This document shows, in pieces, positions 4,189 to 39,315 of a stretch of 64,000 nucleotides of DNA. Under the pieces are notes generated by a model. It saw only the letters and a program-made list of their open reading frames with translations, was not told the origin of the DNA and ran no database searches. Source of the stretch: a virus. Lineage: Duplodnaviria; Heunggongvirae; Uroviricota; Caudoviricetes. Location: IMG/VR virus record IMGVR_UViG_3300037423_001636, positions 13,169 through 77,168 of that record; one strand, given 5' to 3'. Both the position numbers and the translations under genes were made by a program. Each line of letters opens with the position of its first letter. Positions within the stretch are counted from its first letter, which is position 1.

Positions 4189-4233
4189 TAGGGAAAACTC
4201 CCCATTGACGAGCCTCTGCTAGTCTGGTAGAGT
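4189..4233 (+). promoter_or_regulatory. palindrome + promoter element 1
   Basis: TAGGG-N6-CCCCA TTGACG N17 TAGAGT. Confidence 0.8.
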
Positions 4234-4242
4234 GTGCGTCTT

Positions 4243-4716
4243 ATGAATCCAGCCGCCTACATTCCGCTCACCCAATGCGTCAAGGGCAAAATCTATCGGC
4301 TTAATAGCCGCAATCTGGAGATCGGCGTGTATGACGGCAAAGAGGGATTCATCGGAATCCGGGAGAAGTTCGGCCGTTTCTATCTCTTCACGGAATATCA
4401 CCACGATCAGGGGCCGTCGGTTGGCACGGTCTATCCACTGGAGGTTATTGGCGAATTGCCAGCGACAATTGCCGTCAACGATAGAGAGATCCACGCATGG
4501 GGTGACGGTTGGTTCTGGGATATGGAGCTAGAAATCTGGAAGCCCATAGCTCGCCGCGATCTGAAAGAGGGTGAGGCTCAGCATGGAACGCGACAGGGAT
4601 TTGTGGACGAATTTGCCGGAACCAACACTCGGCTTGGCGACAATCAGTGGCCCTGTTTGCGCCGAAACGAGGCGCTATTCGACTACCTCAAAACGCTGGA
4701 GGCGCTTGGAGAATGA
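4243..4716 (+). CDS. hypothetical protein
   Basis: ATG 9 nt after -10; SRNL..GVYDG..GFIGIREKFG. Confidence 0.7.
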   Translation: MNPAAYIPLTQCVKGKIYRLNSRNLEIGVYDGKEGFIGIREKFGRFYLFTEYHHDQGPSVGTVYPLEVIGELPATIAVNDREIHAWGDGWFWDMELEIWKPIARRDLKEGEAQHGTRQGFVDEFAGTNTRLGDNQWPCLRRNEALFDYLKTLEALGE

Positions 4717-5675
4717 GTGAGCCCGCCACCAAGACCATCTGTATCGAGCGTCCTTCTTTCCTATCTCAAATGAGCCGGGAAACGAACTATCGCTACGAAG
4801 ACTTCGATATCTCCAAAGCCTCGCCACACATCCTCCGGGAGACGGTCCGCCATTGTCAGGAAGAATCTCTCGGCGGCCCCACCGCAATTGGGAACTACTT
4901 GAAGGCATCGCAGTGTCTGGACGGAGCTATTCTAGCCGTGGACCAGCGAGTGTCCCGAGACCTCGAAATCTCAACGGTAGCGGGCGATTTATCTCGACTC
5001 GCATTCCCGGCGGCCCAAATGGAGGTGCGATTCGCCGATCCTGATTTGCCCGCCATCCTGCTATGTCGAATCGACAACACTTCCGTGATTCACAAGGGAA
5101 TGAAGATGGAGGACGGAATGACTTTAGCGAACAAGGGAATCCTGTTCAGCGCCGACACGAAAAGCGGAGCCACTCTTACTCTTGCCCTCCCCGACACTCT
5201 GTGGCCGCAATATGTGAGCGGGCAATGGAGCGAGGACATGCGGCCAAAAATCTCTCAGGATATGGTCATGGAGGATGAAGAAGCGGCATGCATGAAATAT
5301 CTCGCGCTGCTCGCGGTAAAAGTGCTCGCTTACGCCAGCTGCTCTCACCTTGCGCCGACTCTGGTGACGACGAAAGCAGAGAAGAAAGCGGCGGGGATTC
5401 ATCCGAAGCACGTATTGCCACATCAGAAGACGTTTGTGGTGCGTTACTTGCCCCATGTGATTCGAGAAAAGCCGGAAATCGCCGAAGCACATGAGCCATC
5501 AGGTAAAACGCGCCGCTTCATGGGTCGCGCCGGCCGGGTCGTGTTCTATGAGCATGAGAGGTATACCCGAATGAGAGGGGTTTGGCAGTGGCAAGCGCCG
5601 ATTGCTCCCCCCGACGGCGTTCGCATCATTTACCGCGTGCGGAAAGCAGCGGGCACTCCAGTTAACCATCCATGA
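4713..5675 (+). CDS. hypothetical protein (320 aa)
   Basis: Long ATGA-coupled ORF. Confidence 0.75.
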   Translation: MSEPATKTICIERPSFLSQMSRETNYRYEDFDISKASPHILRETVRHCQEESLGGPTAIGNYLKASQCLDGAILAVDQRVSRDLEISTVAGDLSRLAFPAAQMEVRFADPDLPAILLCRIDNTSVIHKGMKMEDGMTLANKGILFSADTKSGATLTLALPDTLWPQYVSGQWSEDMRPKISQDMVMEDEEAACMKYLALLAVKVLAYASCSHLAPTLVTTKAEKKAAGIHPKHVLPHQKTFVVRYLPHVIREKPEIAEAHEPSGKTRRFMGRAGRVVFYEHERYTRMRGVWQWQAPIAPPDGVRIIYRVRKAAGTPVNHP

Positions 5676-5887
5676 TCATAGACGACAATATCCCTCCACT
5701 CCTTGTCACTCAGCTCAGACTCGACGTTCAGGCCGCCGATGACGCTATCATCAGAATGGAGCAGGCTGTCCATCCGAATCATTTCAACCGCGTGGAAGAG
5801 CTGCGAACGGTGCGGATTCTCTTGGCCGGCGTGCTGCACAGACTGGAGAAGGACATCGTGGCGTCTGCTGACCCGAAGGCAGAATAG
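5672..5887 (+). CDS. hypothetical protein
   Basis: ATGA-coupled; stop codon is the first triplet of the next element. Confidence 0.6.
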   Translation: MIIDDNIPPLLVTQLRLDVQAADDAIIRMEQAVHPNHFNRVEELRTVRILLAGVLHRLEKDIVASADPKAE

Positions 5888-5930
5888 GGAGTTGTCCTCA
5901 TTGTGCTTTCGCCCCGCACTCTGCTATAGT
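5885..5930 (+). promoter_or_regulatory. palindrome + promoter element 2
   Basis: TAGGG-N6-CCTCA TTGTGC N18 TATAGT. Confidence 0.8.
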
Positions 5931-5939
5931 TTTACCGCT

Positions 5940-6302
5940 ATGACAACGATATTCAACCCAGAGAAAAAAGATAAGCTCACTTACGGCGAATGTCTCGGCC
6001 CCGCCATGAAGATCACTGACCCGGCTGATGCGACGCAGTATCTCAAAGCATATGCATTCATTCAGGTCGCGTTGGATCGTGGCGAAGGCAATAGGGGCGG
6101 CAAGACCGCGGAACAAATTGCCAAGAGCAATCTGGGCTACTATGCTGGCTATTACGACAACGAGACTCGTGAGCGCGTTGAAAGACTGTTCAATTGCAAT
6201 CATCCGATCTTTGGGGCAATCGCGGAGAAAGCGCCGCCAACTCCAGAAGAGGCGTTTGAAATGGGGCGGAAAATGGGCGCGGCGAGGAAGCGGTCACGCT
6301 GA
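5940..6302 (+). CDS. hypothetical protein
   Basis: ATG 9 nt after -10; SNLGYYAGYY motif. Confidence 0.7.
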   Translation: MTTIFNPEKKDKLTYGECLGPAMKITDPADATQYLKAYAFIQVALDRGEGNRGGKTAEQIAKSNLGYYAGYYDNETRERVERLFNCNHPIFGAIAEKAPPTPEEAFEMGRKMGAARKRSR

Positions 6303-6344
6303 GGTATCTCCCTTATTGTGTTTGTCCCTCAATTCTGCTACATT
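6300..6344 (+). promoter_or_regulatory. palindrome + promoter element 3
   Basis: TGAGG-N6-CCTTA TTGTGT N17 TACATT. Confidence 0.8.
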
Positions 6345-6353
6345 CACACCACC

Positions 6354-7251: not shown

Positions 7252-7421
7252 GTCTTTTGCTTTTAAAACTGATCATTTTAACCGTCTGTGCTTTCTTCGC
7301 TGGCGAATCGGTTAGTGAATGCAAAACAAACCGGAAACAGCTTTGGTATGTTCTGCTGCTGTTTATCAGTTTGAGCATTGTATTTATCTCAATCTTGGGC
7401 GACAAGGCGGTGAAACCATGA
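7248..7421 (+). CDS. small membrane protein
   Basis: GTGA/ATGA-coupled 57-aa ORF with two hydrophobic segments (absent from ORF track). Confidence 0.5.
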   Translation: MSLLLLKLIILTVCAFFAGESVSECKTNRKQLWYVLLLFISLSIVFISILGDKAVKP

Positions 7422-8242: not shown

Positions 8243-8671
8243 ATGAAAGCCTCAAAACCATGGCCGCGAATCAGGGTCAACGAGAAGACACTCGGCGCTC
8301 GCGTAGACCGATTCATGAAGCGCAATCCAGCCCCAAAAGACAATTGGCCATTTCTCTATCTCTACGTAGATCACGGAATGCGGTATAGCCAATATCTGGA
8401 TCGCTCCTTTTTCAGTGCCTACACTCCTGAAGGTGTGCAAGACTGTGTAGAACGTCGATTCATGAACGCAATCATGCGGGGGAAGGGTTCGAAACGGAAG
8501 CTTCGTAGAGAGATTGAGTGCAATCCACATTTACACCCACTGCTCAAGGAGAATCTGATTCTGAATCTCCGATGTTTTGGCTCCAATCCAGAATTCTATC
8601 AACATTCCCGATTCATGCCGGTTGGTCTGACTGACAAACAGAAAGCGCAGAGGATCGTGGATGGAGATTGA
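8243..8671 (+). CDS. hypothetical protein
   Basis: ORF ending in the element's TGA. Confidence 0.65.
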   Translation: MKASKPWPRIRVNEKTLGARVDRFMKRNPAPKDNWPFLYLYVDHGMRYSQYLDRSFFSAYTPEGVQDCVERRFMNAIMRGKGSKRKLRREIECNPHLHPLLKENLILNLRCFGSNPEFYQHSRFMPVGLTDKQKAQRIVDGD

Positions 8672-8713
8672 GGAAAATACCCTATATCAATCGATCGTAA
8701 AATCTGCTATACT
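8669..8713 (+). promoter_or_regulatory. palindrome + promoter element 4
   Basis: TGAGG-N6-CCCTA ... TGC TATACT. Confidence 0.8.
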
Positions 8714-9542: not shown

Positions 9543-10045
9543 ATCCCGTGAACCTAGAATCTCTCATCACCGCATACCGTGCCGGCCAGCAGGCCCAATT
9601 GCAATTGGCCCAGCGGGCACGCAAAGTCTTTCGGACAATCCAACGGTTCAATCTGAACGCGGTAAACGACATCAGGCGAATCCGCTCCTATCGGTCGGAA
9701 TACCTATGCGAGCATGGAATCGACCAACTTCCCCCAGACCCCATCTTCGCCGGCACTCAATGGTCGCGGGCAGACATTGAAGCCAATGGCGTGTCTATCG
9801 TATCTTCCGAATACATGGGCGATGAGGAATACGACTATCACACTTTCACCCTCCCATTTACCGCGCTCTGGCAGACAGACGATGAGATCGAGGCAACTTT
9901 GCGCGCTAATCTTACTCGATATCTGTCGGAGGTGGCCCAGCACGAAGAGCGGAAAGCGCGGGAAGCAGAGGAGGAAGCACGGCAGCGATACGAAGAGCTG
10001 AAAGCGCGGTTTGAGCCGCTAACTCCAGATAAGCTCCAAGAATAA
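9539..10045 (+). CDS. hypothetical protein with C-terminal coiled coil
   Basis: GTGA-coupled; ..RQRYEELKARFE. Confidence 0.65.
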   Translation: MNPVNLESLITAYRAGQQAQLQLAQRARKVFRTIQRFNLNAVNDIRRIRSYRSEYLCEHGIDQLPPDPIFAGTQWSRADIEANGVSIVSSEYMGDEEYDYHTFTLPFTALWQTDDEIEATLRANLTRYLSEVAQHEERKAREAEEEARQRYEELKARFEPLTPDKLQE

Positions 10046-10087
10046 GGACATGTCCCTATCGACATCGGTCTGACAATCTGCTACGCT
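10043..10087 (+). promoter_or_regulatory. palindrome + promoter element 5
   Basis: TAAGG-N6-CCCTA TCGACA N17 TACGCT. Confidence 0.8.
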
Positions 10088-11596: not shown

Positions 11597-11935
11597 ATGC
11601 CATCCCGCATCTCTCTAGCCACGTCTCGCAAATCCAAGCAACGCATTCCCAACTGGAACACGAATCCAGACAAGATCACGCTCAATCAGCGAAAGAGCCT
11701 GAAAAGATTGGACCGGCTCATGGATAAATTCGTGAAGTCCATGGACACTCTGTCCTATCTGAATCTAGAGCAGAGCGAGGCGCTGATTGCGGATATGGAA
11801 TACGAAGTGATGCGCTACTTCCCATCTTCTTGGCCTGACGTACAGGCGCGTCTAAATGGTCTGATAACTGACCAGCAGATTGAGGGATCTTCCCTACAGA
11901 CAGACGACCAAGAGTGTGATAGAGTGGTCGCATGA
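11597..11935 (+). CDS. hypothetical protein
   Basis: ORF in gene string. Confidence 0.55.
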   Translation: MPSRISLATSRKSKQRIPNWNTNPDKITLNQRKSLKRLDRLMDKFVKSMDTLSYLNLEQSEALIADMEYEVMRYFPSSWPDVQARLNGLITDQQIEGSSLQTDDQECDRVVA

Positions 11936-13231: not shown

Positions 13232-13276
13232 TAGGGCGAAGTCCCTATTGCGCCGAAAGCGCGAATCTGCTATATT
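13232..13276 (+). promoter_or_regulatory. palindrome + promoter element 6
   Basis: TAGGG-N6-CCCTA TTGCGC N17 TATATT. Confidence 0.8.
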
Positions 13277-18322: not shown

Positions 18323-18368
18323 TAGGGACAACTCCCTATAGCATTCTAACGCAACATTCTGATAGACT
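18323..18368 (+). promoter_or_regulatory. palindrome + promoter element 7
   Basis: TAGGG-N6-CCCTA ... TGA TAGACT. Confidence 0.8.
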
Positions 18369-19529: not shown

Positions 19530-19574
19530 TGGGGTATTTCCCCTATGGACAAGTAGGTCTGGAACTGATAGGAT
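19530..19574 (+). promoter_or_regulatory. palindrome + promoter element 8
   Basis: TGGGG-N6-CCCTA TGGACA N17 TAGGAT. Confidence 0.75.
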
Positions 19575-19940: not shown

Positions 19941-19986
19941 TAGGGACTGAACCCTATTGCACTTCTCTGATAGACTCTGGTAGAGT
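19941..19986 (+). promoter_or_regulatory. palindrome + promoter element 9
   Basis: TAGGG-N6-CCCTA TTGCAC N18 TAGAGT. Confidence 0.8.
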
Positions 19987-19992: not shown

Positions 19993-20760
19993 ATGAATTC
20001 AGAATCATCACCGTTCTATCGAATCCCCGCCGTAACCGTAGAATTGTGCCACTACGGAGGCAATTCCAAAGAGCTGGTTACGAAACACGATGAACAGCTC
20101 GCGGCCCGCAAGCAGGCGTTGATTGATCTGTTCACTGAACTATTCCCCGCTCCCACAAGCGTTGGGTTCAGCCACGATAAATGGAACATCTATCCTTGGA
20201 TCGCGCTCCCCGGCTATCGAGTCAATATAGACGAAACAAATCACGGCTATCTGCGGCTGACAGTCCGTTGGAGTTTCCACCGCTCCAACTCCACGATAAG
20301 GAAGATTAAACTCGTGCGCGAAGGTCAGGGCGATCTGCTGGACAAGCTGAAGTTGAATAAGGCTGTCAGCGACATCATGGCGCAGTGGGAAGAGAAGGCG
20401 CAGCGGGAGAAGGCGGCGCGCACCACAGAGGAACGCAGAAAGACCGCGGCGGCAGAACAATTCGCGATCACACGCCTCCAACTAAGCCTAGATGGAGTGC
20501 GATTCGACGAGGTTGAGGAGAAGGAGTTGCTGCCGACTCAAGGCGACATTCTACTGACCGATAACGCCCACGGCCCCCGTATCCATGTGGCGGGAAACAC
20601 ATGCTACCTCCTGCTGGCGAAGCACCCTTTTGACGACGCACATCAGATTCCATTAAACACGGTCCACGAATTCATCGAGCTGTTTAAGCGGGCGGAACAA
20701 TGGCTCAAGCAGGAGATCGCCGCCAAAGCAGACGCTGAGGGGCAAAGCTCCGCAAAATGA
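19993..20760 (+). CDS. hypothetical protein (255 aa)
   Basis: Leaderless-type start; ends in the element's TGA. Confidence 0.75.
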   Translation: MNSESSPFYRIPAVTVELCHYGGNSKELVTKHDEQLAARKQALIDLFTELFPAPTSVGFSHDKWNIYPWIALPGYRVNIDETNHGYLRLTVRWSFHRSNSTIRKIKLVREGQGDLLDKLKLNKAVSDIMAQWEEKAQREKAARTTEERRKTAAAEQFAITRLQLSLDGVRFDEVEEKELLPTQGDILLTDNAHGPRIHVAGNTCYLLLAKHPFDDAHQIPLNTVHEFIELFKRAEQWLKQEIAAKADAEGQSSAK

Positions 20761-20803
20761 GGGGTATGCCTCATAGACTTAGCACACATCACTCTGCTAT
20801 ATT
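20758..20803 (+). promoter_or_regulatory. palindrome + promoter element 10
   Basis: TGAGG-N6-CCTCA TAGACT N18 TATATT. Confidence 0.8.
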
Positions 20804-21528: not shown

Positions 21529-21843
21529 ATGCGCTTCATCCATTCCAGCCGCCCGAGCAACGCCAACGCCGTCGTATACGAGCTTGAATTCCCCCGCTTC
21601 TCAGGCGGCGTCAGCTCGGCTTGGAACACGGACAGAGTGTGGCGTTACACTGCGGACAAAACGCAGCTCAAACCCCGTGTAACCATACGAGCCGATACTT
21701 CCGAGATATATGGAGACGGCTCCATCAAAACGCTGCTCATCGAAATGACCCCAAAGGAAGCGGAAGAAATGGCGGCTAGCCTGCTCGACATGGCGAAATC
21801 GGCGCGAGAGACGGCGGCAAAGAATGGCGTGCCAGTAGAATGA
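21529..21843 (+). CDS. hypothetical protein
   Basis: Ends in the element's TGA. Confidence 0.6.
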   Translation: MRFIHSSRPSNANAVVYELEFPRFSGGVSSAWNTDRVWRYTADKTQLKPRVTIRADTSEIYGDGSIKTLLIEMTPKEAEEMAASLLDMAKSARETAAKNGVPVE

Positions 21844-21885
21844 GGCAAGCACCCTATAGACTATCCACTCACAATCTGCTATAGT
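21841..21885 (+). promoter_or_regulatory. palindrome + promoter element 11
   Basis: TGAGG-N6-CCCTA TAGACT N17 TATAGT. Confidence 0.85.
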
Positions 21886-23204: not shown

Positions 23205-23249
23205 TGAGGTATACACCTCATAGACTCTGCGCCGAAAATCTGCTAGAGT
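23205..23249 (+). promoter_or_regulatory. palindrome + promoter element 12
   Basis: TGAGG-N6-CCTCA TAGACT N17 TAGAGT. Confidence 0.85.
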
Positions 23250-23835: not shown

Positions 23836-24083
23836 TGCACTCTGAAATCGAAGCTGGTAAGCGCACGGGAACGACCCTAATCATCACGATCGGGATTGCG
23901 GATGCTCGTGCCTACACTGCCGCCAAGATTCGTCGGGCGCGGCGCTGGAAGACGAAGGATGAATTCTGGTTCTGGATCGGCGCGGCTTACGCCTGCCGGA
24001 TGCATCGGATGCATATGCAAGCGGAGAATGCGGCTCGAAATGAGTTGATCTCCTCATTGCATTCGCGCCGGTTAGCGTGCTAG
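23835..24083 (+). CDS. hypothetical protein
   Basis: TAATG-coupled. Confidence 0.55.
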   Translation: MHSEIEAGKRTGTTLIITIGIADARAYTAAKIRRARRWKTKDEFWFWIGAAYACRMHRMHMQAENAARNELISSLHSRRLAC

Positions 24084-24095
24084 ACTGTTCACGCT

Positions 24096-24872: not shown

Positions 24873-25082
24873 ATGAAAACTGTCTGGATCGCCTCCCTGT
24901 CCAATATGCCTCTGTTCGTGTTTAATCAGAAACCGACAAAGGCCGATCTTAGGGAACAGTTCAATTTGTTTATGAGGTTCGCTGAGCCAGTGACCCACAA
25001 ACTGGATTGGAGCGTAAAAGAGGTTCCGGTGATTGAATTGCCGCCACGTCGGGCATTGCGCCGGGTCAAGCCCGGCAAATGA
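24873..25082 (+). CDS. hypothetical protein
   Basis: Ends in the element's TGA. Confidence 0.55.
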   Translation: MKTVWIASLSNMPLFVFNQKPTKADLREQFNLFMRFAEPVTHKLDWSVKEVPVIELPPRRALRRVKPGK

Positions 25083-25124
25083 GGAGCATTCCCTATTGCG
25101 CAAACAGCACCTATCTGCTATATT
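25080..25124 (+). promoter_or_regulatory. palindrome + promoter element 13
   Basis: TGAGG-N6-CCCTA TTGCGC N17 TATATT. Confidence 0.8.
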
Positions 25125-25183: not shown

Positions 25184-25762
25184 ATGGGCACTCGCGGATC
25201 AATTGGTTTTCGCATCGACGGCAAGGACTATCTCGCCTACAATCATTCTGATTCCTATCCCTCCGGGCTCGGCACCGAATTCGTAGCTGAGGTCAAGAAA
25301 CTGATCAAGGACAAAAAGCTCGCGGAGAAAGTCCGCGCCATTCGCCTTGTGAAAAGGGGCGACAAGCCCACCCCCGCCGACGTGGAGAAGCTGAAACCCT
25401 ATACCGATCTGGGCGTCGGCAACCAAAGCACGTCCGACTGGTATTGTCTGCTCCGCAACGCGCAAGGCAGTCTGAAAGCGACGATTGATTCGGGCTACAT
25501 ACTGGACAACGCCACATTCATCCACGATTCCCTGTTCTGCGAGTACGCTTACATCTTGAATCTCGACACCGGCAACGTGGAGTTCTACAAGGGATTCAAC
25601 AAGGACCGGAAAGCCGCGGGGCGCTACGCCGCGATCGAATCGAAAGACCGGGATGGCAAGTTCGAAGAATACTGCGGTTGCGTTCTCGCGGCCGAATTCC
25701 CGGCCAATGCAATCCCAAAAGACTGGGAAAAGAAAGCGTTCCCACCGGAGAAGGACGAATGA
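25184..25762 (+). CDS. conserved phage protein (MGTRG / DSYP family), paralogue A
   Basis: MGTRG..YNHSDSYPSGLG..DSLFCEYAYILNLD..YKGFNK. Confidence 0.8.
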   Translation: MGTRGSIGFRIDGKDYLAYNHSDSYPSGLGTEFVAEVKKLIKDKKLAEKVRAIRLVKRGDKPTPADVEKLKPYTDLGVGNQSTSDWYCLLRNAQGSLKATIDSGYILDNATFIHDSLFCEYAYILNLDTGNVEFYKGFNKDRKAAGRYAAIESKDRDGKFEEYCGCVLAAEFPANAIPKDWEKKAFPPEKDE

Positions 25763-25803
25763 GGGTTTTTCTCACTACGTTACAGCTATTAACCTGATAG
25801 ATT
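25760..25803 (+). promoter_or_regulatory. palindrome + promoter element 14 (degenerate)
   Basis: TGAGG-N5-TCTCA ... TGA TAGATT. Confidence 0.55.
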
Positions 25804-26504: not shown

Positions 26505-26687
26505 ATGTTCCCTCGCTACACTCACACCGATCGCTCTGGCATGAACTGGCGATTCGCCGGCTCGCGCCCCATCTCCGCCCTAGCTGATTCCGTCATGGCA
26601 GAATGCGGATTTGAGCCGAGTAAAGATGGAGCGGGGTGGAAACCGAAAAAGGTCCGGCGTAAGCCGCACAAAACACGGTCCAAATGA
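26505..26687 (+). CDS. hypothetical protein
   Basis: Ends in the element's TGA. Confidence 0.5.
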   Translation: MFPRYTHTDRSGMNWRFAGSRPISALADSVMAECGFEPSKDGAGWKPKKVRRKPHKTRSK

Positions 26688-26730
26688 GGTCTACTCCTCA
26701 TTGCGTTCCCACCTGTGAATCTGATAGAGT
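26685..26730 (+). promoter_or_regulatory. palindrome + promoter element 15
   Basis: TGAGG-N6-CCTCA TTGCGT N18 TAGAGT. Confidence 0.8.
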
Positions 26731-27199: not shown

Positions 27200-27244
27200 T
27201 GAGTAGTCTACCCTATAGATATTTCGTCCGCAATCCATTATAGT
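27200..27244 (+). promoter_or_regulatory. palindrome + promoter element 16
   Basis: TGAGT-N6-CCCTA TAGATA N17 TATAGT. Confidence 0.75.
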
Positions 27245-29029: not shown

Positions 29030-29074
29030 TAAGGAGAACCCCCTATAGACAAGGGACGCAAACTCTGATATTCT
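29030..29074 (+). promoter_or_regulatory. palindrome + promoter element 17 (upstream of tRNA-like cluster)
   Basis: TAAGG-N6-CCCTA TAGACA N17 TATTCT. Confidence 0.8.
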
Positions 29075-29104
29075 CTTTCCTGTTCGATTGATAGTTCAAT
29101 TTAC

Positions 29105-29347
29105 GCGCGATTAGCTCAATTGGTTCCTGTCGGCGCTCCGCAAGGAGATACGGCAGGGGTGATAACCGACGAAGACTAGACGAGAGACCCCGATGCTAAG
29201 TCTCCATTGCAAGGGATACGACCCGGAGGGCACTCAGTCTAGCTAGTAAGCGGCGACTACCTAGAGCGTCATCGGTGGAGCGATCCACCATACACGATGA
29301 AGGTTGCCACAGGTCTGAAACGACTGGTTCGAGTCCGGCATCGCGCA
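29105..29347 (+). ncRNA. tRNA-Val(TAC)-like scaffold with three structured insertions (243 nt)
   Basis: GCGCGAT/ATCGCGC acceptor, TAGCTCAATTGGT..AGAGC D-arm, TCATC/GATGA stem with TACAC, GGTTCGAGTCC T-loop. Confidence 0.7.
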
Positions 29348-29457: not shown

Positions 29458-29531
29458 GCGGGGATAGCTCAATTGGTAGAGCACGTCTAAACATGGCGTG
29501 GATAGAGGTTCGAATCCTTTTCCCTGCACCA
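29458..29531 (+). tRNA. tRNA with atypical anticodon arm (identity undetermined)
   Basis: GCGGGGA/TCCCTGC+ACCA; canonical D and T arms; loop TAAACAT lacks U33. Confidence 0.75.
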
Positions 29532-29646: not shown

Positions 29647-30081
29647 ATGTCCTTTCGTCCCATCATCTGGAATCAATACCTCGGCAAACCTGAATGCCCT
29701 TACATGCGGCGATGGGTGCTGAATCTAGGTCTTTTCTCCATTCGTTTGCATCAGTGGTTTGCGGGCGACGACGATCGCGCTCTGCATGATCATAGCTGGG
29801 ATTTCTGGGTGTGGGTCCTGCGCGGCTCCTATATGGACATTTCCAAGAGCAAGGGTCAGATGGTCGAGCAACTGATGGTGCCTTCATGGCGTCCGACCTT
29901 CCGCAAAGCTGAGCATGCCCACACAGTCCAAACTAAGGGGTGCTGGACTCTACTACTGACTGGCCCCGAGCGACGAGCGTGGGGCTTCTTCATGAAGCTG
30001 CCGCGGACTGGCCATGTCAAATGGGTGAAAGCGAGTCGATATTTCCGCAAGCGTGGGCATCATCCATGCAGCTCAAGTTGA
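29647..30081 (+). CDS. cupin-like protein
   Basis: LHDHSWDF...AEHAHTV...WTL..TGP.RR.WGF. Confidence 0.7.
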   Translation: MSFRPIIWNQYLGKPECPYMRRWVLNLGLFSIRLHQWFAGDDDRALHDHSWDFWVWVLRGSYMDISKSKGQMVEQLMVPSWRPTFRKAEHAHTVQTKGCWTLLLTGPERRAWGFFMKLPRTGHVKWVKASRYFRKRGHHPCSSS

Positions 30082-30123
30082 GGTGTGGACCCCATAGACT
30101 CAGGAGATAGAATCTGATAGAGT
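30079..30123 (+). promoter_or_regulatory. palindrome + promoter element 18
   Basis: TGAGG-N6-CCCCA TAGACT N17 TAGAGT. Confidence 0.8.
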
Positions 30124-30475: not shown

Positions 30476-30895
30476 ATGTCCGCCACCACCTATAAAATCA
30501 GTTCGTATGACGCTCTCACGCTATTTCGGATTGGGCGTCCTAATCTCTGCGGTCTGTTGTGCTGGTTAGAACGTAAACTCGGCCCCACTGAAACGATTCT
30601 AATCGAGCACTGGACCGACTCTCTGTTCTACGTGTCTGTGATGGATAGCAGAATCCAAAGGAGTCCCGATAATCTGGGGATCGGATTCACGGTTGACCTC
30701 GCGAACGATCGGATTTTCTGGAATGCCAGCGGCGGGAACTGCTGGGTGCGCTCTGCCAAGTGGAAACGAATGGTAGGCAAGACACGTGTGGACGGGCTTA
30801 CCGAAGCTCAGGATTTCCACGTGTATAAGGTCGTTCCTATTCCGAAGGCACAAATTAAGGGGAAGTCCTCAGTGACTTCAGTTGCTGGAGTGTGA
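30476..30895 (+). CDS. hypothetical protein
   Basis: C-terminus reads through element 19. Confidence 0.6.
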   Translation: MSATTYKISSYDALTLFRIGRPNLCGLLCWLERKLGPTETILIEHWTDSLFYVSVMDSRIQRSPDNLGIGFTVDLANDRIFWNASGGNCWVRSAKWKRMVGKTRVDGLTEAQDFHVYKVVPIPKAQIKGKSSVTSVAGV

Positions 30896-30901
30896 TAGAC
30901 T
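30856..30901 (+). promoter_or_regulatory. palindrome + promoter element 19
   Basis: TAAGG-N6-CCTCA GTGACT N18 TAGACT. Confidence 0.75.
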
Positions 30902-30907: not shown

Positions 30908-31399
30908 ATGAATTCTGAAACGCGCAGCGAACCACACACGATTGAGCCGAAATGGACTGTTACTGAGGCGGTCGCGCCTCCGGGAATGATCGAACTGCAC
31001 ATCGGAACGCCGGCACGCACGTATGCCGTAGTCTATGCGGACAAAGCAAACAAGCTGGAAGTAGCGGTCGCGCGGGATACGGCAAAGTTGATTGCCCAAG
31101 CGCCTGAAACGGCCAAGAGGCTCGAAACTGCGTCAGCGGCTCTGCTGGAAATGCGCGCCGCTCTGGAGAAGGCCCACGCTGCGCTTACTCAGTATGAAGG
31201 AATGAGCACAGAGCTGCAATCGCGATTCGATGACGCAACCAAAGAACTGAGTCCATACGAAACATGGATGGTCAAATCCAATCTGGAACATGCTCAGTCA
31301 AACGGATTGGAGATGAAATCGGTGATCGCTCAGCTTCGCAAGACCGGCTACGATAAGATCGCCGATGCAGTTGCGAAGGTGGTGCTATTGGGGGTATAA
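30908..31399 (+). CDS. hypothetical protein
   Basis: A.LIAQAPE motif, coiled coil. Confidence 0.65.
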   Translation: MNSETRSEPHTIEPKWTVTEAVAPPGMIELHIGTPARTYAVVYADKANKLEVAVARDTAKLIAQAPETAKRLETASAALLEMRAALEKAHAALTQYEGMSTELQSRFDDATKELSPYETWMVKSNLEHAQSNGLEMKSVIAQLRKTGYDKIADAVAKVVLLGV

Positions 31400-31434
31400 C
31401 CCTATTGAACATTCACGCTTCAATCTGCTAGTAT
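31389..31434 (+). promoter_or_regulatory. palindrome + promoter element 20
   Basis: TGGGG-N6-CCCTA TTGAAC N18 TAGTAT. Confidence 0.8.
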
Positions 31435-31839: not shown

Positions 31840-32147
31840 GCGGTAAGCCTACCAATCTCCCTCCCTTCGCGATCTGCTGGTGGACGCACCCCAAACAGCC
31901 GCATCGTCGCGCGGCCTACGTGTCCCATCTGCCCGGCGAGGACGGCGCGGATTGGGGCTATACACCCAATCGGGAGGGAGTGCCGAATCTGAATCTCCCA
32001 TTTGACCCCAAAGGAAAAGCCCGGCTGGACGTGGCAAAACCTTTGAATCGATACTGGCAAAGACGGTTTCGAGCTGATTGCCGGGCGACTGGAGTGACGT
32101 TCCACAGTGAACCCATATTGACCTCACTCCAGAATGAAAACCAGTGA
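31836..32147 (+). CDS. hypothetical protein
   Basis: ATGA-coupled. Confidence 0.6.
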   Translation: MSGKPTNLPPFAICWWTHPKQPHRRAAYVSHLPGEDGADWGYTPNREGVPNLNLPFDPKGKARLDVAKPLNRYWQRRFRADCRATGVTFHSEPILTSLQNENQ

Positions 32148-32530
32148 ATAGCAAGCGGTCCATGGGAATTCCCATACACCGGAGCACGGCAAAAACTCTG
32201 TTTTGATCGAATCTAAAAGCGGGGGCAAGTGATCTGATAGCCTGAAAACCCTCCCTGCGGCTCCCAGCGGGGCCGGCTAGCTAGTTAGAAGTGGAAGCCA
32301 ATTAGACTCTGTTCTACGTGGAACAAATAGATAGAATACGTATAGGAATACACCACCAACAGAACAGACTCAAATTACGGAGAATCAAGGAGATACGAGA
32401 ATAGGGTAAAAAGAGAGAGTGGGATTGGGTGTAGGCACCCATTTTTTCCCCTCAATTTCCCAAAACTGTCCTATCTCCACTCATACAGTTTACATCACTC
32501 TGCTATCGTCAGCACTAGGCTCGCTCAGAT

Positions 32531-32576
32531 TGAGGCTTTCTCCCTATATCATTTTGGCCTAACCATCTGCTAGAAT
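32531..32576 (+). promoter_or_regulatory. palindrome + promoter element 21
   Basis: TGAGG-N6-CCCTA ... TGC TAGAAT. Confidence 0.8.
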
Positions 32577-32841: not shown

Positions 32842-33262
32842 GTGGGTCGGGTATGAAAACTCAGCCAAAAACGTATCCAAAATCCTCCAAATCCGCTAGA
32901 GTTGGGTATGGTTTCTGCTAGGGCCGGACACAACAGCGGGATTTCATAAACAGATTTAATACAGAGTGTTACAAAAATGACCTTGTTTTGGCACTCTCTG
33001 GCCGAAACGTATCCAAAAGAGACTGCCAATCATTTGCATCAGTCCACGCATTAGCCATCTTCATTCCTTGATCTGCGCGCCATAAATAGTCCTACTTTAC
33101 CCACATACCTACGGGAAACCCCTACATGGGGCATCGGAAACGGCTTGACACGAGCGTGCAAATTGCTCTAGTCTAGTCTACATCGGAACAGTCTATCTAG
33201 CTCACACCCCGGCAATCCAGCCGGCTGCACTGATCCCTTGTTCCACCCATCCCGTCTTTCCC

Positions 33263-33627: not shown

Positions 33628-33695
33628 TAGGGATTATACCCTATCTGAGATTCGGTCTCTTTCGTATTTGACAGATGTCTGTGATCTGTTATGGT
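33628..33695 (+). promoter_or_regulatory. consensus palindrome plus separate sigma70 promoter of the HTH gene
   Basis: TAGGG-ATTATA-CCCTA (33628-43); TTGACA N16 TATGGT (33668-95). Confidence 0.7.
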
Positions 33696-33828
33696 CCACT
33701 GTGTAAAGAGCGTTTCCGGCTCTTCTAGTTAGGTCTAGCTTTGCATCGTAGGCAAAGAAAAACCTTTCGGCAAGACTGGCCGGAATGCTCATCACACAAC
33801 ACAAAAAACCATACAACAACACGTCAAA

Positions 33829-34362
33829 ATGAATACCGAAACCAATATCGCTGCGGCCCCGGCTGCGGCTGCAAACATCGGGACGATCGCATCTACCCCG
33901 GTCGGCCAGATCAACGAAGTTCGCGAGATTGACAATCGTCTCGGGGAGCTACAGAATACGCTCAACAACCTGCTTGCCCGCCGGGAGGAATTGAGACTCT
34001 CTGAGGAACAAGAGAAACGCGAGAAAGCGATGAAACTGCCGGCGGAATGGGGGTTCGATGGAATGGATTCCTTCATCTCCTTCCTGCGGTCTGTCTCCCC
34101 AAAACAGCAGGCTGCGAAAGGTCTGCGCTCCGGCCGCGCGTTCAGCCCCGAGCTGATTGCGGAGTTGAAGAAGCAGATCCGGGAAGGGAAGACGGCCAAA
34201 CAGGTGAAGAGCGCACTTGGAATCTCGTTCCCGAGCTATTACGCCATGAAATCGCGGCTCGGACTCACGAAGAAATACAGCTACCCCAAGGGTCGGAAAG
34301 CCGCTCGCCGGGGGCATAAATCCCGGCCGCAGATGGCTGGTTCTGAGCTGGCGGCGGCGTAG
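33829..34362 (+). CDS. coiled-coil + C-terminal helix-turn-helix DNA-binding protein
   Basis: LPAEWGFD..SF..F linker; LKKQIREGKTAKQVKSALGISFPSYYAMKSRLGL HTH. Confidence 0.75.
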   Translation: MNTETNIAAAPAAAANIGTIASTPVGQINEVREIDNRLGELQNTLNNLLARREELRLSEEQEKREKAMKLPAEWGFDGMDSFISFLRSVSPKQQAAKGLRSGRAFSPELIAELKKQIREGKTAKQVKSALGISFPSYYAMKSRLGLTKKYSYPKGRKAARRGHKSRPQMAGSELAAA

Positions 34363-34660
34363 TCGCTCATCGCGACGGGATTGCTTTAGTAATCCAGCAC
34401 GATAGTGCGAAATAGCACCAAATAGCCCTGTTCCGAGTTTGGAGAACACTCGGCAGGGCTATCTGCATGTCTAGGGGAAATTGGGTGTATACACCCAAAA
34501 TACAGTGAAATTGGGGAATTTTCCCCACTCCACAGAATCGCAATGGAGAGGCGATCTCAGTAGAATCAATATTGCGGTATAGAGTCAATTTAGAGGTGCT
34601 TAGAATCCAGCTAGAATAGCCTAGGATTTAATCCATATCGTTCTAGTAGGGATTAAAAAA

Positions 34661-34706
34661 TGAGTGCTCTACCCTACTATACAGGCTCTTCCGGGTCTGC
34701 TAGAAT
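34661..34706 (+). promoter_or_regulatory. palindrome + promoter element 22
   Basis: TGAGT-N6-CCCTA ... TGC TAGAAT. Confidence 0.75.
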
Positions 34707-34713: not shown

Positions 34714-35121
34714 ATGCAAAAAATCCACCTTTCACCGGCTCAACGTGCGGCTATCCTAGCCGTAATTGCACGTTATTCAGAGCGCCCAAGCCCCGCTGAT
34801 TACGACAGGGAGCAAAGATCGCTTGGCCGAATCGAAATAACACCCAAGCCAAAAGCGAAATCGATTCCGAATACGCTTCCCGGCTTTCAATCTGGAGATG
34901 TGAAGCTCGGCGCGGCATTCGATGCCAAACGTGATTTGCCTGAGGGTTGGGCCGCCGTGAGCTGCCATGATAGCGGGGGGAATCACAGCATCGAAAACGC
35001 TGCAACGTGTGTCTGGCGCAACGTCTGGAACGGTTGGATTGACGGCGCGCCTTACGATCTTGCGGCGAAAGCCGCGGCTCCGGGCGGGGCCGGCGAGACA
35101 GTGCGGGCTCTGACAGATTGA
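34714..35121 (+). CDS. hypothetical protein
   Basis: ATG 7 nt after -10; ends in the element's TGA. Confidence 0.6.
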   Translation: MQKIHLSPAQRAAILAVIARYSERPSPADYDREQRSLGRIEITPKPKAKSIPNTLPGFQSGDVKLGAAFDAKRDLPEGWAAVSCHDSGGNHSIENAATCVWRNVWNGWIDGAPYDLAAKAAAPGGAGETVRALTD

Positions 35122-35163
35122 GGTATACACCCTATATACATTTCACAGACAATCTGCTATACT
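35119..35163 (+). promoter_or_regulatory. palindrome + promoter element 23
   Basis: TGAGG-N6-CCCTA TATACA N17 TATACT. Confidence 0.8.
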
Positions 35164-35170: not shown

Positions 35171-35464
35171 GTGAATAGCAGAACGCTCAAAAGACAATCG
35201 CTCAGTCAGCTCGCCGCAAAACATGGGGCGATAGTCGAGGAGGATGAAGGCACGTCAGACATGCGCCTATTCCAAGTCATTGCGCCGGCCGGCAAGATCT
35301 GGAAAGGAGCTGATTTGCATACACTGGTAGTCCAGTGGGCTCGCGGCGGGTCAGATCAAGCAATCCGATTTAATCAGGATAGCTTTAAAGATGTTGCCGA
35401 ACGTATGTCCCATGGGCTTCGGGATATGACGGAAGAGGAGCGAGAGCTGTGCGCGGAAGATTGA
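35171..35464 (+). CDS. hypothetical protein
   Basis: GTG 7 nt after -10. Confidence 0.65.
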   Translation: MNSRTLKRQSLSQLAAKHGAIVEEDEGTSDMRLFQVIAPAGKIWKGADLHTLVVQWARGGSDQAIRFNQDSFKDVAERMSHGLRDMTEEERELCAED

Positions 35465-35507
35465 GGCATTTACCTCACTAGACAGATTCCCCGCACTCTG
35501 CTAGACT
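35462..35507 (+). promoter_or_regulatory. palindrome + promoter element 24
   Basis: TGAGG-N6-CCTCA c TAGACA N17 TAGACT. Confidence 0.8.
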
Positions 35508-35512: not shown

Positions 35513-35833
35513 ATGGACACTTTCGCCGATTCTCCTCGTTCTCTACAGGGATTGGAATTCGCTCAGCTACCCAAAACTCCATTTGCGCTACGTTACGATT
35601 GGCAAGCTACTCAGGAGGGGCAGCGTGGAGGTATGTCATTTCAATCTACTGAATGGCAGGGAATTTCGGCCGATACTTGGGAGCAAGCTAAAATAAAAGC
35701 TCGCGCGCTGGTCAGTGCGATCCCAGCAATCCGTTTCGATTCAAACGAGCCGCATCATCTGCGCGGGTGCTGTCTTGTGGAATTGGTGGCCGAATTAAGC
35801 TCATTTCGCACGTTGGTATTAAGTCCGAATTGA
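35513..35833 (+). CDS. hypothetical protein
   Basis: Leaderless-type ORF between elements. Confidence 0.6.
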   Translation: MDTFADSPRSLQGLEFAQLPKTPFALRYDWQATQEGQRGGMSFQSTEWQGISADTWEQAKIKARALVSAIPAIRFDSNEPHHLRGCCLVELVAELSSFRTLVLSPN

Positions 35834-35875
35834 GGTATATTACCCATAGACTGTTCATCTTCAATCTGCTAGAGT
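35831..35875 (+). promoter_or_regulatory. palindrome + promoter element 25
   Basis: TGAGG-N6-ACCCA TAGACT N17 TAGAGT. Confidence 0.8.
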
Positions 35876-36625: not shown

Positions 36626-36627
36626 AA

Positions 36628-36673
36628 TGAGGACATTTCTCTATTCTATTTTATCACCGAAATCCTCTAGACT
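36628..36673 (+). promoter_or_regulatory. palindrome + promoter element 26
   Basis: TGAGG-N6-CTCTA ... TAGACT. Confidence 0.65.
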
Positions 36674-36681
36674 TTACACCT

Positions 36682-36753
36682 ATGGAAATCCTCCTAATCA
36701 TCGCGCTCATCGTGATCGGCTGCATTGCTGACGCGATTGCTAAGCGTGATTGA
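36682..36753 (+). CDS. 23-aa single-helix membrane peptide
   Basis: MEILLIIALIVIGCIADAIAKRD directly after promoter. Confidence 0.5.
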   Translation: MEILLIIALIVIGCIADAIAKRD

Positions 36754-36862
36754 ACTAACTCGTCCCGCGATGCCCGCGTGCGCTATCTATTTCTGGCACT
36801 GTGGCCAGATGCATTTTACAGCTTAATCGACTAACCCTCAACCCGACTACGGTCTAAATCAA

Positions 36863-37375: not shown

Positions 37376-37396
37376 CACGAGTGGAAGGCGAAAGAT

Positions 37397-37442
37397 TGAG
37401 GTGATCTCCCTACTAGACAGATTGTGGGAAGTGTGCTAGACT
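37397..37442 (+). promoter_or_regulatory. palindrome + promoter element 27
   Basis: TGAGG-N6-CCCTA c TAGACA N17 TAGACT. Confidence 0.8.
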
Positions 37443-37501
37443 GCGTGCCGTTGATTAGGAAACACCCAAAACAACCAAACAGAGTCTAATCCATCCCCAC
37501 C

Positions 37502-37861
37502 ATGTCGAAATCTGATCGCCTCTCCCTCATTCGCCTGCGCCACGCCATTCTGTTCGGCGTCGCGCTTGGCGCAAACGGTTTCCTTCCCGTTAGCCGGGCC
37601 GAAGTGAGCAAAGAAGCTCGCGCCGTGAAAGCGAAAGTCTCCGCTCAAATGGACGATTCGCTCTCCGAGGGTGATCGCATCGAAGCGCCGGCCGGGGCAA
37701 GCTCCCTCATCAGCTCTTTCGATTCGATTGAAGAGGTGAGGGAAACTGATTCCAATTCACTCCTGTCTGCCGCTGAGCGTCGCCAGCTCGCACGCGAAGT
37801 CGGGCCGGTCAAGGCGTTCAAAGCTGCCGTTCGCTCCCTTCCGCTACGTCTGATGGCGTAG
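37502..37861 (+). CDS. hypothetical protein
   Basis: ORF after A/C-rich leader. Confidence 0.6.
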   Translation: MSKSDRLSLIRLRHAILFGVALGANGFLPVSRAEVSKEARAVKAKVSAQMDDSLSEGDRIEAPAGASSLISSFDSIEEVRETDSNSLLSAAERRQLAREVGPVKAFKAAVRSLPLRLMA

Positions 37862-37897
37862 CACGATCCACAAACAAACAAAACAGAGTCAAAACAC

Positions 37898-37936
37898 CCC
37901 GGCGGGTTCACACCCCGCCGGGAACTCTATTTCTTC
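37898..37936 (+). terminator. GC hairpin, possible terminator
   Basis: CCCGGCGGG/CCCGCCGGG followed by a pyrimidine-rich tract. Confidence 0.45.
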
Positions 37937-37940
37937 CCAG

Positions 37941-38180
37941 ATGAAAACTTTCCTCAGCGAATCCGAAATCATTCACCCAACGCCGCATCAGCTTGCCGCG
38001 GAGAAGCGCGCCGCGGCTGTAAACGCCAAAGCGTTTCGCCATCGGGTGGGGGAAGCGCGGGCGCTCGCGCACTGGCGAGTCAAATGGGAAACGGCACAAG
38101 GGTTGAAACAAGCTGAGCCATTCGTCTTTTATTACTGGTTGGCCTACGGTAGGGCGCTCGGCAAGAATCTCGCGGAGTAA
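37941..38180 (+). CDS. hypothetical protein
   Basis: ORF in gene string. Confidence 0.55.
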   Translation: MKTFLSESEIIHPTPHQLAAEKRAAAVNAKAFRHRVGEARALAHWRVKWETAQGLKQAEPFVFYYWLAYGRALGKNLAE

Positions 38181-38185
38181 AAAAT

Positions 38186-38230
38186 TGAGGTGTTTGCCCT
38201 ATGGCGCTAGCCGCGGCAATCTGCTAGAGT
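38186..38230 (+). promoter_or_regulatory. palindrome + promoter element 28
   Basis: TGAGG-N6-CCCTA TGGCGC N17 TAGAGT. Confidence 0.8.
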
Positions 38231-38237
38231 GTCCACC

Positions 38238-38624
38238 GTGAAAACTACTCGCCTCCGCTACTCCGCTTCAATCACTGTCGAGCGCAATGGTCATGAGATC
38301 ACGCTCAACGTGTCGGCTACAGTCACAGACGAACACAAACAGTTCTATCTCAGCGATTTCAAAACGTCGCCAATTCTACCGTGCGACATAACCGCACAAG
38401 AGTATGATCTCGCTGAATCTGCGGTGATCGACGTGGCGCGATGCTATCCGGAAACAGGTCAATCTGTGGATAGTGTCAATCCCATCGATCACGACGATCT
38501 GTGCGGCTGGTTTCGCGCAGGACGGGCCGCGGCAATGGCTAACCGCAAATTCGAGTTGCCGAGTGGGGAGAGTGATGCGAGGCGCAACGCGTGGAGTGAC
38601 GGATTTCGGAGCGTGCGAGGATAA
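38238..38624 (+). CDS. hypothetical protein
   Basis: GTG 7 nt after -10. Confidence 0.6.
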   Translation: MKTTRLRYSASITVERNGHEITLNVSATVTDEHKQFYLSDFKTSPILPCDITAQEYDLAESAVIDVARCYPETGQSVDSVNPIDHDDLCGWFRAGRAAAMANRKFELPSGESDARRNAWSDGFRSVRG

Positions 38625-38636
38625 AAAAGAAATAAC

Positions 38637-38915
38637 ATGGCCGCAATCTTTTCCATCCCGCTGATTACAGCTAACCGCGTTCCGATTCAAAATGCAATCG
38701 TCGGGCCGATTCAATTCCTCGGGATTCCCCGCTTTCCCACCATGGATAGACTGTGGACCGTGCTTGCCGACACGCGGCGCATTCGGCGTAGTTTGGAGAT
38801 TGAGCCGGAAAACGTGCATCTGGGAATCACGGACGTTCCGGAAATGATTCAGAAGCTACGCGATTACGAGCGCAAGGTGATGGGAATTCTCAGGACGCAG
38901 GGCGCAACTGTGTAA
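38637..38915 (+). CDS. hypothetical protein
   Basis: ORF in gene string. Confidence 0.55.
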   Translation: MAAIFSIPLITANRVPIQNAIVGPIQFLGIPRFPTMDRLWTVLADTRRIRRSLEIEPENVHLGITDVPEMIQKLRDYERKVMGILRTQGATV

Positions 38916-38917
38916 AA

Positions 38918-38962
38918 TAGGGAATCAACCCTAGAGACAAAATCAAATCAATCTGCTAGAGC
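38918..38962 (+). promoter_or_regulatory. palindrome + promoter element 29
   Basis: TAGGG-N6-CCCTA GAGACA N17 TAGAGC. Confidence 0.75.
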
Positions 38963-38970
38963 CTATCCCA

Positions 38971-39309
38971 GTGAGCGGAATTACTGTAAAAGAACTGAGA
39001 GAACGGGACGGCGGCCGATGGGGCGGCAAACCTCGTGTCAAACGTGCCGAGCTGTTCACGAAAAACGGGTTTCCCGTCCAAGGGCTGCGCAACGCGCTAG
39101 ACGTTTACGAGTGCAAAACGCTAGAAGAATTGCAGGCGAAAATCGCCAACCCAGACGAATTCATCGGGCCGAACAGTTTCATGCGTGTGCGCGGTTGCGG
39201 CCAACCGGGAAACCCGGGCAAAGTGACTCTGTTTCTATTTCCTCACTTGCTCAGCCGAGCCGAACAGATTGAGGAAAAGACCCTATTGAATTTGGGTGAC
39301 GGAATCTAG
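38971..39309 (+). CDS. hypothetical protein
   Basis: GTG after promoter; C-terminus reads through element 30. Confidence 0.6.
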   Translation: MSGITVKELRERDGGRWGGKPRVKRAELFTKNGFPVQGLRNALDVYECKTLEELQAKIANPDEFIGPNSFMRVRGCGQPGNPGKVTLFLFPHLLSRAEQIEEKTLLNLGDGI

Positions 39310-39315
39310 TAGAGT
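39270..39315 (+). promoter_or_regulatory. palindrome + promoter element 30
   Basis: TGAGG-N6-CCCTA TTGAAT N18 TAGAGT. Confidence 0.75.

Follow-up and report, generated by a model that had tools for sequence, protein, structure and literature searches.

Repeated early-promoter cassettes are a known class of phage element. The early region of T4 contains many strong promoters for host RNA polymerase, with a consensus that extends 5' of the -35 and at the extended -10; the upstream element is an A-rich, UP-like tract, and the early mRNAs carry leaders and Shine-Dalgarno sites. Dyad sites for a dimer, centred at approximately -42 to -43.5, occur at the Mor/C promoters of Mu and at OR2 on the lambda PRM promoter, where cI binds, and from this position sigma region 4 or the C-terminal domain of the RNA polymerase alpha subunit (alpha-CTD) can be contacted. 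These systems comprise one to four promoters per phage and a phage-encoded binder, and the Mor/C promoters are without a usable -35. A single protein site repeated 12-30 times is found in the phiC31 inverted repeats, the L5 stoperators, and the KorB OB sites of RK2, of which the class I sites lie just upstream of the -35. These elements carry the cognate repressor gene, the phage cases are temperate, and the stoperators are asymmetric and act on elongation. Promoter-early stem-loop (PeSL) cassettes, located in the hyperplastic regions of T4-type phages, pair a GGGG...CCCC stem-loop with a sigma-70-like early promoter and mediate shuffling; the stem-loop is stable, has tested terminator activity, and is separated from the -35 by an AT-rich tract (Arbiol et al. 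2010, PMC2839356; Comeau et al. 2014, PMC4122927). Here, a repeated 45-bp unit in which a palindrome (dyad) directly abuts a predicted promoter was analyzed in an uncultivated tailed phage (IMG/VR record IMGVR_UViG_3300037423_001636, hereafter G000). Coordinates refer, unless stated otherwise, to the window, a stretch of 64,000 nucleotides representing bases 13,169-77,168 of the source contig (205,168 bp, GC 52.5%).

The units are located in an early block of approximately 35 kb, comprised of small, fast-changing genes. As with PeSL cassettes, dozens of short composite units place a G-run/C-run dyad just 5' of a sigma-70-like early promoter, the units lie in plastic blocks rich in ORFans, and gene gain, loss, and movement are bordered by units. 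As with the T4 early promoters, many promoters of the type read by host RNA polymerase are gathered in one early region and share a consensus beyond the two hexamers; unlike those of T4, they carry a GC-armed palindrome upstream, are predicted to yield almost no leader, and have no Shine-Dalgarno site. The unit is set apart from these systems by a fixed, non-hairpin dyad abutting the -35, by stop-codon sharing, by near-leaderless starts, and by conservation across a broad clade.

From 5' to 3' the unit consists of the dyad T-R-R-G-G-N6-C-C-Y-Y-A, a -35-like hexamer, a spacer of 17-18 nt, an extended -10 (TCTGc-TAgAnT), and, after 5-9 nt, an ATG or GTG, the whole arrangement, from operator and stop codon to promoter and start codon, taking up ~55 bp. 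In copies aligned on the dyad, conserved positions were T1, R2, R3, G4, and G5 of the left arm, C12, C13, Y14, Y15, and A16 of the right arm, T17 and G19 of the T(T/A)GAC -35, and AATCTGc-TAgAnT around the -10. Information content was concentrated in the dyad arms, in T17/G19, and in AATCTGcTAgAnT, while the N6 centre of the dyad and the promoter spacer held approximately 0 bits, indicating that selection on specific positions maintains the copies and that they did not arise by recent duplication. The distance from dyad start to -10 start was 39 nt in 17 copies and 40 nt in 13, a spacing fixed to +/-1 bp, and the spacer measured 17 or 18 nt in 31 of 32 copies. Within the -10 hexamer TAnnnT, T1 and A2 were each present in 32/32 copies and T6 in 31/32; the extended -10 had T at -15 in 30/32 and G at -14 in 29/32. 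A generic sigma-70 scan independently picked up 10 of the units.

An original prediction, made from the sequence alone, had listed 30 copies. The described unit was present at all 30 positions, those at 25760 and 36628 having a degenerate right half-site, and two further copies of identical anatomy (11881 and 24041) bring the total to 32 (Table 1). A position-weight matrix scan of both strands of the 205-kb genome recovered dyad plus promoter only at 4189-39270, in agreement with the statement that all copies lie on the + strand with none past 39.3 kb. The bare dyad TRRGGN6CCYYA occurred 29 times in the window, compared with 0.56 +/- 0.76 (maximum 4) in 100 dinucleotide-preserving shuffles. 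Other elements of the prediction required revision: the -35 box is only moderately conserved (mean 3.7/6 matches to TTGACA, with 2.4 at random positions), the block holds about 75-90 open reading frames (ORFs) in place of a regulon of about 100 genes, and the proposed RNA cluster is reduced to a single Rfam-recognised RNA, a tRNA at 29458-29528.

The unit was found well beyond G000. A pattern scan of viral contigs, in which a reversed-pattern control found none, identified ~28 units in one cluster on one strand of a second complete genome (G001; 190,671 bp, GC 53%), the large terminase (TerL) of which is ~50% identical to that of G000. A stricter pattern applied to metagenome contigs matched 73 contigs, 19 of them with at least two units on one strand (GC 43-63%), including dense examples with 16 dyads in 13.5 kb and 9 in 3.6 kb. 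Closer relatives, L273 (7 units) and L274 (13 units), were reached via the family of the protein encoded at 33829. Across G000 and related sequences, the dominant strand had 141 strict full-module matches and the opposite strand 0, of which one unit on each metagenome contig owes its presence to the search pattern and the others do not; offsets in these matches were 38-42, nearly all 38-40, plus a displaced class at 50. Distant TerL relatives G002-G006 (GC 37-40% where read) contained no dyad, and de novo k-mer and dyad counts gave no analogous element in them; loci L193-L195, found via a conserved 80-aa protein, likewise contained no dyad.

Gene content around the units is mosaic. The structural and replication modules of G000 and G001 are syntenic, and only a handful of the ~80 early ORFs are common to both. 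L273 is collinear with 33.1-40.5 kb of the window and is without three single-gene cassettes located between the units at 34661 and 35831; its junction unit is most like the G000 unit at 35462. The homologue of the 38637 gene occupies a different slot in L273, directly before a unit, and units of five unrelated contigs, set among different neighbours, are followed by members of the 31441 protein family. Homology searches with two early proteins found only the queries themselves. The 45-bp units appear to act as portable homology patches at which single-gene cassettes are gained, lost, and moved. They would represent a second, independent case, beside the T4-type PeSLs, of repeated promoter units as apparent joints for cassette shuffling. 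The unit has persisted over long evolutionary times in uncultivated jumbo phages of a widespread group, whereas the controlled genes turn over almost completely.

The two arms of the dyad do not co-vary. Watson-Crick combinations at arm pairs 2-15 and 3-14 numbered 13 and 14, with 13.1 and 12.0 expected under independence, and A.C was the commonest 3-14 combination in G000. Among 130 unique modules from this and related genomes, the right, promoter-proximal arm was CCCTA in 108 (~83%), while the left, distal arm varied between TAGGG, TGAGG, TAAGG, and TGGGG without compensation. The 22-nt dyad windows had a mean folding energy of -4.1 kcal/mol (range -0.6 to -8.7; shuffles -1.4), half of the hairpins were weaker than -3.5 kcal/mol, and a U-tract was present in none. 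In view of the missing co-variation and the weakness of most hairpins, the dyad is interpreted as a duplex protein site and not a hairpin; it most likely behaves as the site of a dimeric protein with the ideal target TAGGG-N6-CCCTA. The first triplet of the distal arm is a stop codon in >90% of modules, and in 43-47% (~45%) it terminates a preceding open frame 40 codons or more in length, compared with 23% for stop triplets in general in the block. The most economical reading is that the distal half has been relaxed so as to double as a stop codon.

It is improbable that no binding protein is involved and that the dyad serves either as a stem-loop of the PeSL kind, with weak terminator or attenuator activity or a role in processing or stability of the upstream transcript, or as part of a homology patch for recombination. 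The PeSL precedent, the folding energies lower than those of shuffles, and the G000-L273 indels and one gene move bordered by modules are consistent with such a role. The uncompensated arms, the frequent A.C pair, the weakness of half of the hairpins, the missing U-tract, and the chance-level terminator-like sites described below argue against a stem-loop, and a recombination patch by itself would not account for a dyad-to--10 distance constant to +/-1 bp next to an N6 and a spacer that have drifted to zero information. Of the PeSL features, rearrangements bordered by units were found here and a stable terminator stem-loop was not. The present unit also differs in that the dyad abuts the -35 at a fixed distance, the left arm supplies a stop codon, and no leader separates the -10 from the predicted start of translation.

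An ATG or GTG located 5-9 nt past the -10 opens an ORF of at least 53 codons in 27 of the 32 copies, in line with the predicted near-leaderless starts without a Shine-Dalgarno sequence. The remaining five comprise one copy with a 13-nt gap, one at the head of a non-coding stretch with a tRNA, and three without a convincing adjoining ORF. The second codon of unit-adjoining ORFs is usually AAx, and the gap to the start codon was 5-10 nt across the 130 unique modules. Shine-Dalgarno-like 4-mers precede 52 of the 267 genes predicted genome-wide, which is near chance, suggesting that the host is probably not reliant on Shine-Dalgarno sequences. The units are read as standard primary-sigma (sigma-70-type) extended -10 promoters, and, given initiation ~7 nt past the -10, the mRNA should begin on the start codon or 0-3 nt before it. 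Terminator-like sites in the block were at chance (21 compared with 19.9), and nested read-through transcripts are therefore expected. RTGAA start contexts were common in the early block (29/71 genes).

Units lacking a start codon behind the -10 have a leader motif in common (GTTCAATTAAC or GTTCGATTGATAGTTCAATT type), located at 29075-29110 and 37443-37470 in G000, at 3750-3775 and 4475-4500 in L273, and at several sites in L274. These may be a second class of unit yielding leadered or non-coding RNAs. The tRNA behind one of them was assigned by ARAGORN to tRNA-Val (29458-29531), with the anticodon AAC, which is unusual for bacteria.

A phage-encoded extracytoplasmic function (ECF)-like sigma factor was considered as the reader of these promoters and rejected, because G001 has the same promoters and no homologue of this sigma. 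The gene (46142-46759, - strand; Sigma70_r2 E 3.6e-9, weak r4_2, phrog_1740) sits in a leftward gene group, and a promoter-like site at ~48873 (- strand) has the same extended -10 and no dyad.

On balance, we regard it as probable that the early promoters are read by the host primary sigma together with a dyad-bound dimeric factor that co-regulates the whole block. Host primary-sigma RNA polymerase would recognise the TTGACA-like -35, the 17-18 nt spacer, and the extended -10 (TGn-TAnAnT); the first gene would be translated from a leaderless or near-leaderless mRNA, and downstream genes likewise without Shine-Dalgarno sites. A dimeric DNA-binding protein on the 16-bp dyad at -51 to -36 would touch or compete with RNA polymerase, and the factor, host- or phage-encoded, may help RNA polymerase by recruitment or boosting. 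The distal half of the site tolerates TAG, TGA, or TAA, doubling as the stop of the preceding gene in ~45% of units.

If the start site lies 7 nt past the -10, the dyad spans -51 to -36 with its centre at -43.5. Judged from geometry only, this resembles the Mu Mor/C and lambda cI/OR2 sites, where a dyad near -43.5 touches the -35 region; unlike in those systems, there are 32 promoters here, the -35 hexamers are usable, and no binder was found. Class II CRP/FNR sites are similar in having a 16-bp 5-N6-5 dyad with T1, G at positions 2 and 4, an A-rich 5' flank, and -35 contact. They differ in centre (-41.5) and in arms (TGTGA or TTGAT, not TRRGG), and no CRP-family helix-turn-helix (HTH) was found in the phage genome. 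The class II activator geometry put forward in the original prediction is thus not matched by the predicted centre, whereas its statement that the dyad is neither a CRP nor an FNR box agrees with the arms TRRGG/CCYYA. Its dimeric factor is in keeping with the protein-site behaviour of the dyad (no co-variation), while the binder itself was not found.

The existence and identity of this factor, and the direction in which it regulates, are inferred. Six modules of G001 have the dyad 10-11 bp further upstream, approximately one helical turn, with an A/T tract in the gap, and several modules with a very poor -35 (TTCCCT) retain the dyad. Together, the displaced dyads and the TTCCCT units suggest a protein that has to face RNA polymerase from one side, can substitute for a weak -35, and helps rather than simply occludes.

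Several points weigh against the combination of host sigma and dyad-bound factor. Promoter activity, start sites, and leaderless translation are predicted from geometry alone, and the helical-phase class comes from a single genome, in which it comprises 2-3 independent sub-families. The core promoters appear able to act unaided (TGn, TAnAnT, and 3.7/6 matches at the -35 compared with 2.4), so that an activator is not required and repression or tuning is equally possible; the earlier claim that the factor switches on the block is therefore not established. Repressors such as KorB, at class I promoters, likewise have sites that adjoin the -35. A repressor-like look is also given by orphan dyads in tandem, spaced 23-30 bp, and by the dyad over the -35/spacer of a leftward promoter-like site. 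Pfam scans of 120 early and 77 conserved ORFs gave no transcription-factor family among the matches listed (the top 25 families, with novel folds able to escape), and HTH_3, HTH_17, and the CRP-type HTH (HTH_Crp_2) were not found in G000 or G001. Furthermore, in 301 Planctomycetota genomes the unit occurred at chance level, with fewer matches than the reversed-pattern control.

The dyad may instead be the operator of a host- or phage-made repressor, with promoters that fire unaided on entry and are later silenced together, a rather unlikely reading that nonetheless merits serious weight. On this reading, the repressor would shut off the whole early block as a temporal early-to-middle switch or a carrier-state brake, with KorB OB (RK2) or the phiC31 inverted repeats as the model. 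The core promoters look intrinsically competent, and a dimer on a dyad abutting the -35 would reach the space of sigma region 4 and alpha-CTD. Orphan dyads in tandem, at 42749/42772 and 34482/34512 in G000 and also in L228 and L223, resemble cooperative operator arrays, and one dyad covers the -35/spacer of the leftward promoter-like site at 42741. As with the phiC31, L5, and KorB operators, a repeated site stands in fixed relation to promoters or transcription direction, consistent with co-regulation on a genome scale; unlike those systems, no repressor-type gene (HTH_3, HTH_17, CRP-type HTH) or integrase was recognised in the two complete genomes. The displaced dyads of G001 keep to one face of the helix at ~-55, a position from which the -35 could not simply be occluded, and retention of the dyad by TTCCCT modules fits help better than hindrance. 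We therefore lean towards activation or boosting as the leading reading, with repression as a serious rival.

The original prediction had pointed to the HTH protein encoded at 33829 as the candidate binder. It is very improbable that this 177-aa protein is the dimeric dyad binder, regulating itself via the orphan dyads that flank its gene (33628 and 34482/34512). Its C-terminal HTH-like region gave a weak match to phrog_323 ('transcriptional regulator, D5-like', E 0.0034), and residues ~100-150 align to HTH_7, HTH_23, and HTH_28 in Atlas structures with TM 0.24-0.29, which serve as leads only, as do its Atlas neighbours, mostly from Verrucomicrobiota with scores <0.9. The gene has its own promoter, TTGACA-N16-TATGGT (33668-33695), with no abutting dyad and a leader of ~130 nt. 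Both promoter and leader are conserved in sequence between G000 (33660-33828) and L273 (~600-750), suggesting that the leader is a regulatory 5' untranslated region. An exhaustive HMMER search gave 84 relatives of the protein, and a profile of 80 members matched in G000, L273, L274, and the dyad-less G005 (37% GC). In G001, with its ~28 dyad modules, no member was found by profile or tblastn, and no dyad lies upstream of the homologous promoter in L273. Since the family is missing in G001 and present in G005, the protein does not track the dyad, and its role as binder is contradicted.

The only regulator-type matches in the ORF scans were the ECF-like sigma and the weak hit of the 33829 protein. 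PHROGs searches of 20 small conserved ORFs found no transcription factor, and the Mor/C family was not among the top 25 families listed for the 197 ORFs, with no search aimed at Mor/C. We lean towards a host factor or an unrecognised phage protein, and not the 33829 protein, as the reader of the dyad. More narrowly, and as a doubtful proposal, the reader could come from a host of a Shine-Dalgarno-poor bacterial lineage, as a global regulator or as a factor associated with RNA polymerase. TerL relatives in species genomes fall in mixed bins of metagenome-assembled genomes (Eubacteriales at 60%, Nitrospinales at 39%, distant Planctomycetota), and the module was present in none of the genomes with those relatives. 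If a host reader is involved, a whole phage clade spanning GC 43-63% would have placed all of its early cassettes under a single host factor. The phages would then reveal a previously undescribed promoter-proximal element together with its host reader, and would provide a sequence tag by which hosts could be assigned to them.

The unit is a natural example of extreme regulatory compaction. It provides a searchable signature for the early regions and relatives of these phages in metagenomes, and the dyad offers a defined 16-bp bait (TAGGGTAAACACCCTA duplex) for a host or phage regulator.

Table 1. Repeated units, dyads outside units, and the HTH-like protein gene in the window; stop codons named lie within the dyad.
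Feature	Coordinates	Strand	Remarks
Module 1	4189..4233	+	Dyad TAGGGAAAACTCCCCA, -35 TTGACG, -10 TAGAGT; ATG 4243
Module 2	5885..5930	+	Dyad TAG is stop of upstream ORF; ATG 5940
Module 3	6300..6344	+	Dyad TGA is stop of upstream ORF; ATG 6354
Module 4	8669..8713	+	TGA stop; ATG 8723
Module 5	10043..10087	+	TAA stop; ATG 10096
Module 6	11881..11925	+	Not in original prediction; ATG 11932, 6 nt past -10
Module 7	13232..13276	+	ATG 13286
Module 8	18323..18368	+	ATG 18378
Module 9	19530..19574	+	ATG 19582
Module 10	19941..19986	+	ATG 19993
Module 11	20758..20803	+	TGA stop; ATG 20810
Module 12	21841..21885	+	TGA stop; ATG 21893; gene is one of few early genes common with G001
Module 13	23205..23249	+	Perfect palindrome TGAGG..CCTCA; ATG 23256
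Module 14	24041..24086	+	Not in original prediction; ATG 24096
Module 15	25080..25124	+	No long ORF directly 3'; next gene 25184
Module 16	25760..25803	+	Degenerate right half-site, 16-nt spacer; ATG 25813
Module 17	26685..26730	+	ATG 26740
Module 18	27200..27244	+	Without TG of extended -10; ATG 27253
Module 19	29030..29074	+	Heads non-coding stretch with tRNA-Val 29458-29531
Module 20	30079..30123	+	ATG 30131
Module 21	30856..30901	+	ATG 30908
Module 22	31389..31434	+	ATG 31441; gene family behind modules in 5 metagenome contigs
Module 23	32531..32576	+	ATG 32590, gap 13 nt
Module 24	34661..34706	+	ATG 34714; cassette missing in L273
Module 25	35119..35163	+	GTG 35171; cassette missing in L273
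Module 26	35462..35507	+	ATG 35513; cassette missing in L273; best DNA match to L273 module 1559-1605
Module 27	35831..35875	+	GTG 35882, DUF7227-type gene, conserved in L273
Module 28	36628..36673	+	Degenerate right half-site; then only a 23-codon ORF
Module 29	37397..37442	+	No adjoining start codon; next gene 37502
Module 30	38186..38230	+	GTG 38238
Module 31	38918..38962	+	GTG 38971
Module 32 (last)	39270..39315	+	GTG 39323
Orphan dyad TAGGGATTATACCCTA	33628..33643		24 bp upstream of -35 of promoter serving 33829 gene
33829 protein gene	33829..34362	+	177 aa, C-terminal HTH-like region
Two orphan palindromes TGGGTGTATACACCCA and TGGGGAATTTTCCCCA	34482..34527		30 bp apart, 3' of 33829 gene
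Dyad cluster	42740..42980		Two dyads 23 bp apart and further (A)CACCCTA half-sites

The dyad cluster at 42740-42980 occupies the non-coding gap between the early block and the leftward genes and includes four more (A)CACCCTA half-sites; the gap looks like an iteron or operator array. Similar clusters were observed in L223 (positions 5026-5145 of the reverse complement) and, near the PhoH gene, in G001 (~22062 after reorientation). G000, G001, and L223 have no ORF in common next to the half-site hub. The palindromes at 31953, 34482, and 34512, which have TGGG arms and no promoter, were not counted as units.

The contig ends of G000 overlap by 127 bp, indicating a circular assembly. Its tailed-phage genes include a T4-type large terminase, a tape-measure protein, a gpJ-like tip protein, and minor tail proteins, and its replication and metabolism genes include a DnaE-type polymerase, DnaB, ribonucleotide reductase, and PhoH. 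No integrase was found in G000 or G001, and G000 is a virulent-looking tailed phage. Among 50,697 deposited phages there was no DNA match and no close TerL (best 27% identity), while more than 100 TerL relatives with 41-62% identity were found in metagenomes, many on contigs of 140-210 kb. These phages are uncultivated, siphovirus-like jumbo phages unrelated to the T4 type.

Several TerL homologues (P0010, P0015, P0016, P0037, P0039, and others) are 900-1080 aa in length with a LAGLIDADG domain (PF14528), and appear to be intein-containing variants inside this phage clade. A sugar-modification gene block at 115-135 kb of the genome (loci L003 and L004) is common to G000 and G001. It encodes GDP-mannose 4,6-dehydratase, epimerases, and two GT9 heptosyltransferase-like genes, together with GT1 and GT34 genes, FkbM methyltransferases, and a sulfotransferase, and may point to a diderm host or to glycosylation of virions or DNA.

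Two unusually long ORF-free stretches, 32148-32530 and 32842-33262, interrupt the otherwise tightly packed early block, and neither had an Rfam match. The first ends in a hairpin plus T6 run (32426-32447); the palindrome at 32426 was rejected as a unit and reads as an intrinsic terminator. Between the 37502 and 37941 genes, a 9-bp GC hairpin without a T-run (CCCGGCGGG...CCCGCCGGG, 37898-37922) is the sole strong hairpin of the block.

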